A stretch of 64,000 nt of DNA from a bacterium (GTDB lineage: Bacteria > Patescibacteriota > Minisyncoccia > UBA6257 > GWB1-50-10): assembly GCA_021813265.1 (NCBI GenBank), contig JAKALF010000001.1, positions 2,548 through 66,547 of the forward strand. Reading direction: 5' to 3'. This document shows positions 3,351-39,469 of this stretch, piece by piece. Made by a program: the position numbers and the translations under genes. How positions within the stretch are numbered: the first letter of the stretch is position 1; every line of letters begins with the position of its first letter. The notes under the pieces are model-generated. The model ran no database searches. It had not been told where the DNA came from and worked only from the letters and a program-made list of their open reading frames with translations.

Positions 3351-3427
3351 TGGGGTGCCTGATGGGAATCGAACCCACGACGACTTGCTCCACAGGCAAG
3401 CGCTCTACCAACTGAGCTACAGGCACC
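3351..3427 (-). tRNA. tRNA-His (GTG) with G-1 and encoded CCA
   Basis: Cloverleaf folded by eye: 8-bp acceptor including G-1:C73, anticodon loop CTGTGGA, T-loop TTCGATT. Confidence 0.85.
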
Positions 3428-7394: not shown

Positions 7395-7469
7395 TGGTGC
7401 CGCGGGAGGGAATTGAACCCCCGACGCCAGCCTCTTCAGGGCTGCGCTCTACCACTGAGCTACCGCGGC
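7395..7469 (-). tRNA. tRNA-Phe (GAA)
   Basis: Acceptor GCCGCGG/CCGCGGC, anticodon loop CTGAAGA, T-loop TTCAATT, encoded CCA. Confidence 0.85.
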
Positions 7470-7526
7470 GTTATCAAACCACGCATTCTAGGATAAATAA
7501 GAAAGACGATACTGTAAAGGAAAATT

Positions 7527-7602
7527 GGTGCCCCCGCCAGGACTCGAACCCGGAACCTTCTCCTTAGAACGGAGCCGCTCTATCCAGTTGAGCTACAGGG
7601 GC
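7527..7602 (-). tRNA. tRNA-Arg (TCT) (anticodon stem has one G.A mismatch)
   Basis: Acceptor GCCCCTG/CGGGGGC, anticodon loop GTTCTAA, T-arm CCGGG-TTCGAGT-CCTGG, encoded CCA. Confidence 0.65.
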
Positions 7603-7666
7603 ATGTTATTAAAGACAAATTGATTCTAGAATAAAATTAGGATAGATTAAAGTCCGAAGCAAAAAA

Positions 7667-7737
7667 CGGAGAGTAGTATAGTGGTAGTACGCGTGCTTTG
7701 GGAGCACGTAGTCCGGGTTCGATTCCCGGCTCTCCGA
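7667..7737 (+). tRNA. tRNA-Pro (TGG)
   Basis: Acceptor CGGAGAG/CTCTCCG, anticodon loop TTTGGGA, T-loop TTCGATT. Confidence 0.8.
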
Positions 7738-8089
7738 CAAATTTTTCTTAATCAAACCTATATAAAAATACCGGAGTAAAATACTCCGGCACCAATGTTA
7801 TTAAGAGAGCAGGCTGGGCTACTAGCCAGTTCAAGCTTTCTTTCCAAAAAGAAATACCCGACTTTTACATACCGTGATTCGCTTATGAGATCACACCTTT
7901 TCCAAAGGCCAAGGGTCAATAAAGTAAACGCGGGCTCTTAATTTATTGTAAAGGCACGAAAATTTCCTCCTTATATTATAGAATATTTCGTTTTAACAGA
8001 TAAAGCAACTTTTAAATTAGACTTTATTGAACAACACTATAACCCCTGACGTTCTGACTGCTACCTTTTGGCACGCCCCTCACATTCGC

Positions 8090-9489: not shown

Positions 9490-9563
9490 GCGGGTATGGT
9501 ATAACGGTATTATGTCACCCTTCCAAGGTGAAGACACGGGTCCGACTCCCGTTACCCGCTCCA
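9490..9563 (+). tRNA. tRNA-Gly (TCC)
   Basis: Strong similarity to the canonical glyT pattern: GCGGGTA...CCTTCCAAGG...TACCCGCTCCA. Anticodon loop CTTCCAA. It is hidden inside a spurious 72-aa minus-strand ORF. Confidence 0.8.
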
Positions 9564-14992: not shown

Positions 14993-15904
14993 ATGCCTAA
15001 TGAAAGAAAAACAAGGGTTCTGCTTGTGATTTTAGACGGTTGGGGAATAGGAAACGATGATGAGAGCAATCCCATCCATTTCGCGAATCCTCAAACCCTT
15101 GGGTATATACAAAAAACCTTTCCCTCGGGAATGCTCCAAGCCTCGGGAGTCGCGATCGGTCTTTCATGGGAAGAATCGAGTTCAAGCGAGTTGGGCCATC
15201 TTGTGATGGGATCGGGACGCGCCCTCCACGCGTACGCGAAAGAAATTTTCTCAAAAACTTCTCCTATCTCAGAAACCCTTGGGGAGATTCTTTCTCAACA
15301 TAACAAAGTTCAAATGCGTATAGCGGAAGAAGCGAGGTATGAACATATTACGTACTTCTTTAATGGATTAAGAAACGATCCCTTTCCTAATGAGTATCGG
15401 GTACGGATCCCGTCGGAAAAAACCCTTCACCCCGAAACGCATCCCGAAATGATGGCCTCTGCCGTAACGGATCGGGTTATAATAAGTCTCAAGGAAAAGG
15501 CGTTTGATTTTATCGCCATAACCTACGCGAATCCCGATGTTATCGCCTTTACGGGAAACTATGAGGCGACCATAAAGACGGTTCAAACGATTGACGGAGA
15601 GTTAAAAAGACTAATGGATACCGTCTTAGAAGAAAGCATCCTTATGATTATAACCTCAAGCCATGGAAACGCCGAGGCGGTTTTAAATCTCAAAACGGGA
15701 GAGACGGAAAAGACTAACGATCCCAATCCCGTTCCCCTCTATCTTGTGGGAAATGAATATATCCTAAAAAACCCCCACCCCGACATCTATCACCTTCCTC
15801 CGCTCGGAATCATATCCGACATAGCTCCGACTATTTTAGATCTCATGGGAATCAAAAAACCCAAAAGCATGACGGGAGAGAGTTTGTTATCTCAGTTGAA
15901 ATAG
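14993..15904 (+). CDS. iPGM-like alkaline-phosphatase-superfamily protein lacking the central phosphotransferase domain
   Basis: N-terminus VLLVILDGWGIG...SELGHLVMGSGR and C-terminus ITSSHGNAE...DIAPTILDLMG match the two halves of the GpmI phosphatase domain. The intervening ~230 aa are absent. Confidence 0.55.
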   Translation: MPNERKTRVLLVILDGWGIGNDDESNPIHFANPQTLGYIQKTFPSGMLQASGVAIGLSWEESSSSELGHLVMGSGRALHAYAKEIFSKTSPISETLGEILSQHNKVQMRIAEEARYEHITYFFNGLRNDPFPNEYRVRIPSEKTLHPETHPEMMASAVTDRVIISLKEKAFDFIAITYANPDVIAFTGNYEATIKTVQTIDGELKRLMDTVLEESILMIITSSHGNAEAVLNLKTGETEKTNDPNPVPLYLVGNEYILKNPHPDIYHLPPLGIISDIAPTILDLMGIKKPKSMTGESLLSQLK

Positions 15905-16846
15905 CTTGTCTTCCAATTTTCTTGTGTTTCCGTGACACAAAAGGCCTCTGTATGAATTGAGTGTTTCTTGCGTCGCGCGGGTTTTAACACGATTGAACAT
16001 TCTCCGCTTTGTCGCGGTTCGCAGTACCCGATGATCGGGGAAATGGACCCAACCCAGGAAATCAACGCCGGAGCCGAGGGGTTTTACAAAAACCTTATGG
16101 CTGTGTAGATGAAGATTGAGACTTTCTTTTAAGAATAAATCTATTTGGGGAATACGTGACCACGCGCGTTTTTTGTCTCCAGAAAAAATCACGAAATCAT
16201 CCGCGTAACAGATATAGTACGGTTCTCTCAATGCGTGTTTTATAAACCTATCAAATCTATCCATATACACATTCGCGAAAAGCTGGCTCGTGAGATTTCC
16301 AAGCGGCAACCCCTTCCCCGGAGTTGCGTGAAAACTCTCAATAATGCTTCTGCAAAGCCAAAGCGTTTTTGTATCAACTCGCTTTTCTAATATTGAAAGA
16401 AGGATTTCGTGATCAATGCTCGCGAAGAACTTTTATATGTCGCATTTTAGTATCCAACACTGTTTTGTGTTGTTTTTGCTTACTCTGTACGCGAAGGCGC
16501 GGAAACGATCTAACGCCTTACGCATCCCCTTGTTGTTTCTGCACGAAAATGAATCGGAAATGAATTTCTTGTCGAAACAAGGATAAAGCACGCGATACAT
16601 TGCGTGATGCAGGAGACGGTCTCGAACGCGCGCTTTATGAATGTTTCTCGGTTTCGGATCGGAAATATTAAAAGCAACATAACCTCCGTGGCGGTAGGCG
16701 CGGTTTACAAGCTCGCGGTGGAGTGAGAAAACATGATCCATAAGGTGAAGCGAAAATTCCCGCACGTCCGGTTTGCCCCTCTTACCGTTCAGAAACTCCC
16801 GCCACGCTTCAAGTAGATTTTCAACGGAAATAATTTGTTCAAACAT
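15887..16846 (-). CDS. DGR-type reverse transcriptase interrupted by one in-frame TAA (16433-16435); possible pseudogene
   Basis: N-terminal part: RNIHKARVRDRLLHHA and ...KCDI*KFFASIDHEILL. C-terminal part: GNLTSQLFANVYMDRFD and YADDFVIF. The two ORFs are in the same frame, separated only by TAA at the motif-2 Arg/Lys position. Confidence 0.8.
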
Positions 16847-17260
16847 ACGTTATGGAATCAAATAAAACCTTTAACCCCCCCCCGACGGAATGACCTGCCG
16901 GTAATTCGGAAATTGATTGACGTTTACAAACTCTGGCATGAATTCGTACCGCACATTCCGAAGACCTCGCGATATACGTTGGGAGGGAAGATTGACTCAT
17001 TATTTTTGGACGTGATTGAATTGATATTTGCCGCGTCCTACGACACAATGTCCGAAAAAATCGCAAGACTAACTAACGCGAACGCAAAACTCGGAACACT
17101 CAAATTTTTTCTCCAGATCGGCTGGGAAATAAAGATGATGGATACGAAAAGATACATCGTTCTATCAGAAAAACTTGATGAAATTGGACGAATATTGGGA
17201 GGATGGAAACGCGGTATAGAAACAAAACTCCCCGCAGGAAAGCAAGGAGAACGGGGGTAA
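16835..17260 (+). CDS. avd: Avd-like four-helix-bundle protein (DGR accessory variability determinant)
   Basis: YKLWHEFVPHIPKTSRYTLGGK ... LDEIGRILGGWKR matches the Avd / 23S-IVS four-helix-bundle family. The start is uncertain (TTG at 16835) and overlaps the RT start on the opposite strand. Confidence 0.6.
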   Translation: MFKHTLWNQIKPLTPPRRNDLPVIRKLIDVYKLWHEFVPHIPKTSRYTLGGKIDSLFLDVIELIFAASYDTMSEKIARLTNANAKLGTLKFFLQIGWEIKMMDTKRYIVLSEKLDEIGRILGGWKRGIETKLPAGKQGERG

Positions 17261-17371
17261 GCTGCGAGAAAAAACGCGGCCGCCTTCGTTCCAGAAGACG
17301 TCACGAAGACCATACGCACCCAAGTACCACCCGCGATCGTCACCATCCCAGTACGCGTGCACGGCCACCAC
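17258..17371 (-). repeat. DGR variable-repeat-like copy B (orphan, abutting avd stop)
   Basis: 114-bp copy of 17710-17823. It differs at 22 positions, all in codon positions 1-2 of 13 codons. Confidence 0.7.
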
Positions 17372-17612
17372 GCTCAATATATGCGCGACGCGCCATCTAA
17401 ACCACCGCGTCTTGAACATTCTCGACGCTGTATCGTATGCCGAGGATAAAACCTCGAGAGCGCGTTGCACCAGCTGACCTTTTGTTTTTTAAGCGTTTTC
17501 TCGCGCTCCTCCGTAAAACATATCCGACGGAGTTCCCGCTTGAAAACCGCTTGAAACTTTCCCGCCGAAACCATAGCCGCGGCGAAAACGAAAATTTCAA
17601 AGTTTAGTATAC

Positions 17613-17659
17613 AAAAAAATCCCTCTTTCTCAAAGGATAAACATAAAAGAGAAAGAGGG
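17613..17659 (-). terminator. hairpin (11-bp stem ccctctttctc/gagaaagaggg) + T-run downstream of the DGR target gene
   Basis: Perfect inverted repeat with a T7 run on the minus strand, about 50 nt past the target stop. Confidence 0.5.
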
Positions 17660-17709
17660 AGAATGAAAAGGAAGAAGAGGGAAAAAGAAGAAAGGAAAAA
17701 AGGGGAAGG

Positions 17710-18414
17710 TCAGCTGCGAGAGAAAACGCGGTAGCCTTCGCGCCAGAAGGCACCATCAAGAACATACGCATCCAAGATCCACGCGCGATCGTCATCACCC
17801 CAGCGCGCGTCCACGGCCACCACGCGTCCATCTTCCAATTCAACATAGAAGATGGTGGCGTAGCCATTGACGAGTAGCTTGCCTTCCTCTCCTTCTGGTT
17901 GCTTCATGAGCAGATAGGAAAGGATTGAGGAGAATTCTAGGAGGGAGAAAGGCTTGGGATGTCCGAGTTCCTCGAGGATCTCGGAATCACGCATGTCCTT
18001 TGAAAGCTGAGTCGATTGGAGATTCCCTTGAAAGGCGGGGACAAGATTGGGGATTGCTTTTAGGATCCGATCCCTGAAACTATCCCAAATATATAACTTC
18101 ACGGGACCATTCTTGAAGAATGAGTCCCTTTGAAAGGGCTGGATGCTTATGGGGATCTGGTCCGTGATTAATTGTAGATGTTTCAGCGCGAACTTGGACG
18201 CACCAACGATAAGATCCGCTATTTTTTCGGCCATCTGCGGAATCAGATCTTTTTTATCCTTTAATGCGTCAAAAATCTGATCTTCAGAAACGTTCCTTTT
18301 CTTCAATTCTTTAAGTAATGAAGAAAAGAAATCGACTATAAACATTAAAGCGGCGAAGATTGATGATTTTTTCTGTGTCATTTGACACCTCCATATGTTG
18401 TGATGTTCCATCAT
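17710..18414 (-). CDS. DGR target protein with a C-terminal variable region
   Basis: 234 aa. The last ~37 codons (17713-17823) are one copy of the diversified repeat. Confidence 0.65.
   Translation of the reverse strand: MMEHHNIWRCQMTQKKSSIFAALMFIVDFFSSLLKELKKRNVSEDQIFDALKDKKDLIPQMAEKIADLIVGASKFALKHLQLITDQIPISIQPFQRDSFFKNGPVKLYIWDSFRDRILKAIPNLVPAFQGNLQSTQLSKDMRDSEILEELGHPKPFSLLEFSSILSYLLMKQPEGEEGKLLVNGYATIFYVELEDGRVVAVDARWGDDDRAWILDAYVLDGAFWREGYRVFSRS
17713..17823 (-). repeat. DGR variable repeat (VR) at the 3' end of the target gene
   Basis: See repeat B. It is followed by a roughly 70-nt homopurine(+)/CT-rich(-) tract. Confidence 0.7.
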
Positions 18415-22312: not shown

Positions 22313-22399
22313 GCTGAGGTGGCGGAACTGGCAGACGCACCGGGTTCAGGGCTCGGCGGGAGCGATCCCTTGGGAGTTCAAATCTCCCCCTCAGCACCA
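22313..22399 (+). tRNA. tRNA-Leu (CAG), class II with long variable arm
   Basis: Acceptor GCTGAGG/CCTCAGC, anticodon loop TTCAGGG, long variable arm, T-loop TTCAAAT, encoded CCA. Confidence 0.8.
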
Positions 22400-39118: not shown

Positions 39119-39469
39119 GGGGATGTCGGGCTTCGATAAAGTGTGTCTGGATATGCTGCAAGCTGAGCTGATTGACTCATACATCCAATCAAAACAAATA
39201 ACTGTCAAAAACACAGTTAGGACGCCCGCTTTTGCGTTTGCATAAGTGAACGTCTTCTCTTATCATTTAAGATTAGAGCATCAGTCCCCGAATCTTCATA
39301 GGGGAACCACTGGTGTTATACATGAAGATCGCCGAATATCGCGGTTAATTAGTTCTACCGCCTTCGGTTAATAATTAAAGAACTAAATTCTGTTTCTTTT
39401 GAAACTAAGCTTGTAGAGTGCGTATTCAAAACATTTTAGATGGCGGTTCAACTCCGCCCATCTCCACCA
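39119..39469 (+). ncRNA. ssrA: tmRNA (ssrA)
   Basis: 5' GGGGATGTCGGGCTTCGA pairs with 3' ...CATCTCCACCA. T-arm GGCGGTTCAACTCCGCC. In-frame tag ends ...RTPAFAFA-TAA. Lies immediately downstream of smpB. Confidence 0.8.

Follow-up and report, generated by a model that had tools for sequence, protein, structure and literature searches.

The 64,000-nucleotide stretch analyzed here (hereafter the window; positions 2,548 to 66,547 of contig JAKALF010000001.1, assembly GCA_021813265.1, from a bacterium of the Patescibacteriota) carries a diversity-generating retroelement (DGR) of architecture B3 of the candidate phyla radiation (CPR) that is probably a relic. Its template repeat (TR) appears to have been overwritten by an adenine-mutagenized copy, its reverse transcriptase (RT) gene would later have acquired a nonsense mutation, and its variable repeat (VR) seems frozen at the end of a target gene that is still intact. 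The element looks inactive because the RT frame is interrupted by a nonsense codon, most template adenines are lost, and a single VR allele is on record. Thus, the initial annotation of this DNA as a mutagenic-homing cassette held for the parts list and for descent from a DGR but not for the capacity to home: with an RT stop and an adenine-poor template, the cassette now looks incapable of mutagenic homing. Its five main components are as follows.

17710..18414, minus strand: target gene, 234 amino acids (aa), with a hydrophobic helix at the N terminus and the VR at the C terminus
17708..17825, minus strand: VR, including the TGA stop codon of the target (17710-17712)
17256..17373, minus strand: template repeat, adenine depleted (TR'), identified by position and flanks
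16835..17260, plus strand: avd, accessory four-helix-bundle protein of 141 aa, on the strand opposite the target, template, and RT
15887..16846, minus strand: DGR-type RT frame of 319 codons, with an in-frame TAA at 16433-16435, treated as a pseudogene

The two repeats (17708-17825 and 17256-17373) are 118 nt long, lie 452 nt apart, and are 82% identical, close to the 114 bp and 450 bp first given for the recurring segment at the end of the 234-aa open reading frame (ORF). They form a near-identical pair whose VR occupies the 3' end of a protein-coding target. When read in the frame of the target, the 21 mismatches fall at codon position 1 in 6 cases, position 2 in 13, and position 3 in 2, so that 19 of 21 affect positions 1 and 2 (binomial P = 0.013), and the codon-position-restricted variation noticed initially was borne out.

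The RT frame retains LGNLTSQLFANVY (LGNLTSQ) and YADDFVIF (YADD), motifs of DGR-clade RTs, and RVT_1 (E 2.3e-21) was the only Pfam domain found in it, maturase and endonuclease domains being absent, in agreement with the initial annotation. In contrast, the intact ORF of about 318 aa that had been described does not exist. A TAA at codon 138 (16433-16435) divides the frame into ORFs of 137 and 140 aa, and the locus has no intact, expressible RT gene. An alignment with 26 other full-length RTs of the family placed this stop at the conserved R/K of the motif DI[RK]KFF, and the stop was found in all six assemblies that cover the position. Recoding of TAA was ruled out, since TAA is the commonest stop codon of the long ORFs in the window and terminates 17 of 31. 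A split yet functional RT was also ruled out: there is no canonical start after the stop, and the downstream 140-aa ORF lacks motifs 1 and 2.

Two other RT identities were rejected. The best NCBIfam match of the RT was group_II_RT_mat (TIGR04416), but its score of 124 bits was far below the cut-off of 300, and with RVT_1 as the sole Pfam domain this argued against a group II intron RT/maturase. A retron RT was rejected on a retron_St85_RT score of 47.5 bits against a cut-off of 235 and on the result of an Rfam search, which gave no retron RNA (msr/msd) match at the locus. Furthermore, the nearest RT homologs and the 26 full-length family RTs all adjoin avd and A-biased TR/VR pairs. A near-identical intact RT was sought among more than 7,900 RT homologs and not found, the best being 72% identical. 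The locus of this best homolog and one other (L093 and L095; related loci are designated by L numbers) have different targets, with canonical A-biased repeats in the same layout. On the opposite strand, the Avd-like ORF was identified as an Avd by profile search, with a match to Pfam bAvd PF22296 at 64.7 bits (cut-off, 40; E 1.3e-17) and a score of 77.4 bits with NCBIfam DivGenRetAVD, slightly below the cut-off of 80. Thus, neither of the two outcomes that the initial annotation had considered incompatible with a DGR, an RT of group II intron or retron type and an Avd-like ORF devoid of bundle homology, was obtained.

A degenerate-pattern scan yielded 79 loci related to the target, all in metagenome-assembled genomes (MAGs) of Patescibacteria/CPR; the target protein itself has few close homologs. 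About 40 of the 79 have the layout target (+), repeat, avd (-), RT (+). Architecture B3, TR-(avd)-RT with a reverse-strand avd, accounts for 90% of the published CPR DGR set (Wu et al. 2018, NAR 46:11, PMC5758913), and the window locus has this order, the reverse avd, and a CPR host. The divergent orientation of RT and avd had been regarded as atypical; since B3 is published and the same layout recurs in about 40 related loci, it is in fact the norm of the clade. Judged by its homologs, the window locus is a DGR cassette by descent, of a known and abundant kind, because homologous loci of the same order carry canonical A-to-N TR/VR pairs. Indeed, in most of about 38 TR/VR pairs from relatives, 85-100% of the mismatches are at TR adenines (for example, 17/18 in L010, 21/21 in L041, and 22/22 in L073).

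Other members of the family seem to have lost the cassette. RT, avd, and TR are absent within 5 kb at about half of the 79 target homologs (L008, L018, L021, L023, L024, and ∼35 others), and RT fragments alone remain at L015, L032, L053, L068, L084, and L085. The closest target homolog, L008 (65% identity), is itself an orphan without a cassette. In this family, the target gene thus seems often to outlast the cassette.

Several features mark 17256-17373 as the putative template, orthologous to the family TRs by position and flanks. The segment 5' of it has stayed conserved in relatives with as little as 45-48% identity in the target protein; it lies between a conserved 5' RNA domain and a 3' hairpin, both described below; and its 5' boundary and its 3' signature, TTA where the VR has TGA, are those of the TRs of relatives. 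Its composition, however, is that of a VR. The 37 family TRs contain 19-30% A and 8-15 AA dinucleotides, versus 5-19% A and 0-7 AA dinucleotides in family VRs. With 12% A (14 adenines) and 2 AA dinucleotides, the window template is not the A-rich, AAY-bearing sequence of its relatives, and it is close to the window VR (11% A, 1 AA dinucleotide). We defined family-A sites as the 29 alignment columns with A in at least half of the 37 family TRs. The template keeps A at 11 of these 29 sites and the window VR at 9, versus 20-26 in the TRs that aligned over all or nearly all sites. Codons that are near-invariant AAC in the family read CAC, TAC, GAT, TAC, GGT, and GGC in the template, which has a single AAC left.

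The differences between the two copies were equally unlike those of relatives. Only 6 of the 21 mismatches are at template adenines, versus 85-100% in most relatives, and 5 of 21 are at adenines of the gene copy, so the differences are not adenine specific in either direction. Since the template has a base other than A at 15 of the 21 mismatches, the present VR cannot have been made from the present template. A low-A but functional TR was ruled out by the same 15 positions. When the mismatches were mapped onto the family alignment, however, they occurred in 15 of 29 family-A columns and in 5 of 85 other columns (Fisher odds ratio 17, P = 2.8e-7). At high-confidence A columns where both copies have a base other than A, the two agree in 2 of 5 cases, as independent draws predict. 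From this pattern we infer, as the simplest reading, that both copies are independent adenine-mutagenized derivatives of an A-rich ancestral TR and that the template was overwritten.

Population data were drawn from public assemblies. Public records contain 11 contigs that encode exactly this target protein, and we fetched seven loci from different assemblies by exact protein sequence; the lineage is on record from NCBI and ENA sources only. The VR was identical in all seven. Six assemblies span both repeats and are 99.85-100% identical over the 2.7-kb cassette, with four haplotypes that differ by three synonymous RT single-nucleotide polymorphisms (SNPs), one homopolymer indel, and four noncoding SNPs, whereas VR, template, and RT stop are identical. 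As the loci were retrieved by exact protein sequence, finding the same VR in all of them is in part circular; a less circular check, the 90%-identity cluster of the target protein, contains a single member sequence, present on 7 contigs. Two scans of JGI metagenome contigs, with N at the variable sites, gave 0 matches for variant VR alleles or an intact ancestral TR. Thus, at the assembly level, where rare sub-consensus variants are invisible, there is no sign of ongoing VR diversification. The initial annotation had stated that a lack of population variation at the VR would speak against it, and this lack is what the assemblies show, with one VR allele in the six assemblies that span both repeats. 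As a separate observation, the RT SNPs at 16640, 16643, and 16649, common to haplotypes L003 and L006, are synonymous third-position changes (P66, N68, and I69), and their spacing within 10 nt suggests a single small recombination or multinucleotide event.

These data fit a history in three steps. In working relatives, as extrapolated from the BPP-1 model, an RNA in which a three-way-junction domain precedes and a hairpin with a U-tract follows the A-rich TR would be copied by an RT-Avd complex that misincorporates opposite adenines, and the resulting cDNA would replace the VR. In the window lineage, the template would have been overwritten by such an adenine-mutagenized copy, most likely through the homing of the element's own cDNA into the TR instead of the VR; the pattern of differences points to the overwriting, and the route is the less certain part. 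This event would have erased most of the AAY adenines and ended the capacity for diversification. The RT nonsense mutation probably came afterward, because adenine-specific loss needs an active DGR RT. The target gene would then have stayed intact, with its VR frozen.

Published work bears on the first step. In BPP-1, the directional transfer from TR to VR depends on the initiation of mutagenic homing (IMH) site and a nearby hairpin (PMC3240598), and natural DGRs have been described as not self-inactivating (PMC3521204). Engineered DGRs without directional homing, in contrast, "continuously erase adenine from TR," which limits sustained mutagenesis (10.64898/2026.07.21.739853), and TR self-mutagenesis was reported for DGRec in E. 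coli, where IMH is bypassed by recombineering (10.1101/2025.03.24.644984).

We weighed this history against five other explanations. The one that survived best is that the template was overwritten, before the RT decayed, by homologous recombination or gene conversion with another VR allele as the donor, which could be that of another strain or of a paralogous target. The outcome would be the same, a VR-like template with TR-type flanks; RT-independent TR-VR recombination occurs in engineered systems (10.1101/2025.03.24.644984); and some related genomes (L036, L043, L057, and L060) do have paralogous target genes. However, the present VR is excluded as the donor, as the two copies differ at non-A sites, and no third repeat copy or paralogue is found within the 64-kb window, so an additional, unobserved donor is required. 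We regard this explanation as rather unlikely.

It is very improbable that the locus is an active canonical DGR, with a functional RT, 17256-17373 as a working template, and a VR under diversification. All components are present, LGNLTSQ and YADD are intact, as are avd and the structure of the template RNA, and the template retains 14 adenines. Nevertheless, an in-frame TAA, the usual stop in the window, replaces a conserved residue of the RT, 15 of 21 TR/VR differences are at non-A template bases, and one VR allele is recorded over four haplotypes.

We give similarly little credence to the possibility that a second target gene, now truncated, left its VR behind at 17256-17373 and that the true TR was deleted or lies elsewhere. 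The segment is VR-like in composition, and a 101-aa ORF (17165-17470) passes through it, but this ORF overlaps avd and has no family match. Homology to the target begins exactly at the TR boundary of relatives, without an upstream coding extension; the conserved 5' RNA domain and 3' hairpin on either side of the segment are specific to TRs; and the segment ends in TTA instead of a stop codon, like the TRs of the closest relatives, L010 and L013.

Neutral decay of the template by point mutation after loss of the RT is hardly tenable. The RT is a pseudogene, as this explanation demands, and L071, a second family member with an internal RT stop (codon ∼114; VR 1728-1837, TR 2182-2291; L082 was listed alongside), has many non-A mismatches, with 15 of 29 at non-A bases. 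But the L071 TR is still A-rich (24% A, 10 AA dinucleotides), and its decay pattern differs from that of the window. In the window, the changes cluster at family-A sites, as seen above, only 2 of 21 differences are at third positions, and the flanking RNA domain is almost without mutations. Finally, a mix-up of TR and VR during metagenome assembly has a negligible probability: the sources are indeed MAGs and metagenome contigs, but six independent assemblies from several accessions are identical across both repeats, and a 118-nt repeat at 82% identity is too short and too divergent for collapse.

Several points weigh against the proposal of an overwritten template in a relic DGR. We found no sister strain with an A-rich template or an intact RT, and without a close sister the ancestral template has to be deduced from distant relatives, with targets at most 48% identical. 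Direct self-homing is indistinguishable from a gene conversion in which the TR received the sequence of another VR allele. A DGR acting in trans from elsewhere in the genome is possible, our data covering the window. VR variation was judged from assemblies, in which sub-consensus variants would be invisible. Lastly, avd and the RNA domain remain intact, as does the RT outside its stop codon, which implies that the inactivation is recent or that some residual function is kept.

The overwritten-template proposal has a more specific form, to which we assign about even chances: a natural DGR would have committed "template suicide," its own mutagenized cDNA homing into the TR, the target being frozen irreversibly, and the RT decaying thereafter. 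So far, such a failure is known only from descriptions of engineered DGRs without directional homing. If this form is true, the directionality safeguard of natural DGRs is leaky, and self-erasure is one evolutionary route that fixes hypervariable genes. An adenine-erased template with intact TR flanks would be a natural record of this safeguard failing, and a VR-like template between TR-specific flanks is a signature that can be searched for and would allow one to estimate how often DGR targets freeze.

The flanks of the template were analyzed for RNA structure, which gave the following features.

17385..17468, minus strand: structured RNA domain, a three-way junction, directly 5' of the template, supported by covariation in the 37-locus alignment A5
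17468-17459 with 17394-17385, minus strand: P1 of the three-way junction
17455-17452 with 17445-17442, minus strand: P2 of the three-way junction
17428-17425 with 17410-17407, minus strand: P3 of the three-way junction
17218..17249, minus strand: terminator-like hairpin and T-run (CTCCTTGC...GCGGGGAG TTTTGTTTCT) directly after the template

Alignment A5 covers 37 loci (e.g., L010:6723-6859 and L014:5872-6008) and takes in the 137 nt that precede the TR. RNAalifold predicted 18 base pairs, with compensatory changes at 17 of them. In A5, 96% of the cells were paired, versus 35-46% when the partners were slid by 1-3 columns, and the covariation score was 0.81, versus 0.13-0.17 in these slid controls. 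The window keeps 17 of the 18 pairs. The structure is assigned to the TR strand because G-U pairs are frequent, and the domain had no match in Rfam. A conserved run of A was also seen just upstream of it (about 17483-17488 in the window).

On the other side of the template, the hairpin at 17218..17249 overlaps the 3' end of the convergent avd. Most family loci (L016-L092) have a hairpin ∼10-20 nt 3' of the TR that ends in conserved GGGAGTTTTG / GGGAGUUUUG, and its stem covaries (CTCTCGTC/GGCGAGAG, CTCCCGC/GCGGGAG, and CTTCCGC/GCGGAAG). This hairpin could serve in termination of the template RNA, in priming, or in both. Together, the 5' domain, the TR, and the 3' hairpin with its U-tract outline a putative compact template RNA. 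The domain and the hairpin define the template RNA of the most abundant CPR DGR class and could guide its reconstitution and improve DGR finders. Among the DGRs of Patescibacteria, the locus is an ordinary one; what is noteworthy is the erased template and the 5' RNA domain.

The overlap of the avd and RT starts described in the initial annotation depends on where avd begins. It amounts to 12 nt, with the RT ATG at 16846, provided that avd starts at TTG 16835. This start is plausible because the N-terminal motif TPPRR..LPVI that it includes is kept across relatives. Public gene calls begin at a later ATG, which gives 70 aa, and an exact-sequence look-up of the 141-aa Avd returned no match. Two observations concern the same end of the gene. 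In one assembly (L003), the 9-nt C/G homopolymer at 16876-16884, just inside the 5' end of avd, is longer by one G, which would frameshift the N terminus; this is a sequencing error in the homopolymer or one more step of decay. In L014, L017, L025, L027, and L041, the motif (T)PPPR..LP(V/I)I is in frame without an ATG, GTG, or TTG between it and the upstream stop, which hints that initiation is noncanonical or that the short divergent region between avd and RT contains a conserved nucleotide element.

Two further features lie between the repeats.

17613..17659, minus strand: terminator-like hairpin of the target gene, stem CCCTCTTTCTC / GAGAAAGAGGG followed by T7, read from the sequence
17606..17633, minus strand: sigma-70-like promoter match, TTGAGA-16-TATACT, upstream of the template RNA

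Hairpins equivalent to that of the target gene are present in relatives. The promoter-like match (17633-17606) is not significant, with 4 such matches in the region versus 3.9 expected by chance, and we take it as a weak lead for the template RNA, not as a finding. A short hairpin occurs immediately 3' of the VR in many relatives; at the window and in the relatives closest to it, a pyrimidine tract takes its place. The two repeats part at the stop codon (TGA in the VR, TTA in the TR), and a GC-rich IMH is not evident.

The window also encodes a tmRNA (39119-39469, plus strand; tag peptide VKNTVRTPAFAFA), six tRNA genes (3351-3426, 7395-7738, 9490-9563, and 22313-22399), RNase Y, SecG, and other housekeeping genes, which points to a chromosomal and not a phage site for the cassette.

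Compared with known systems, the window locus is closest to the CPR B3 DGRs, with which it shares gene order and orientations, host clade, a single adjacent target, and a short RT without extra domains. It differs from them by the RT nonsense codon and by a template that is short of most adenines and does not follow the A-to-N rule. Group II intron and retron RTs have the RVT_1 palm and fingers in common with the window RT, which lacks a maturase or endonuclease domain, an intron RNA, and msr/msd. The engineered, recombineering-coupled E. coli DGRs reach the end state of the window template, an adenine-erased TR with diversification lost; they are, however, synthetic, with IMH bypassed by means of RecT, whereas the window is a natural chromosome with a putative route to this state.

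The DGR of Bordetella phage BPP-1, with the order mtd-avd-TR-brt, is the mechanistic prototype. The window shares its components: the RT carries the [LIV]GxxxSQ and YxDD motifs, Avd is a bundle protein, and the target gene ends in the VR of a TR/VR pair of ∼120 nt. In the relatives of the window, as in BPP-1, diversification affects the first two positions of AAY codons. Unlike in BPP-1, no GC-rich IMH/IMH* pair is recognizable at the window, where TR and VR diverge at the stop codon, and the fold of the target is not demonstrably that of a C-type lectin. The window avd is on the opposite strand, 3' of the TR, and therefore fills the interval between TR and RT in which a spacer RNA like that of BPP-1 would have to fit. 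BPP-1 has a structured spacer 3' of its TR; in the B3 layout, this site is occupied by the antisense avd, and the window has a covarying domain on the 5' side of the TR instead, with a short hairpin and U-tract on the 3' side. What the spacer RNA does in BPP-1 may be done in CPR by the uncatalogued 5' domain, from the opposite side of the TR.

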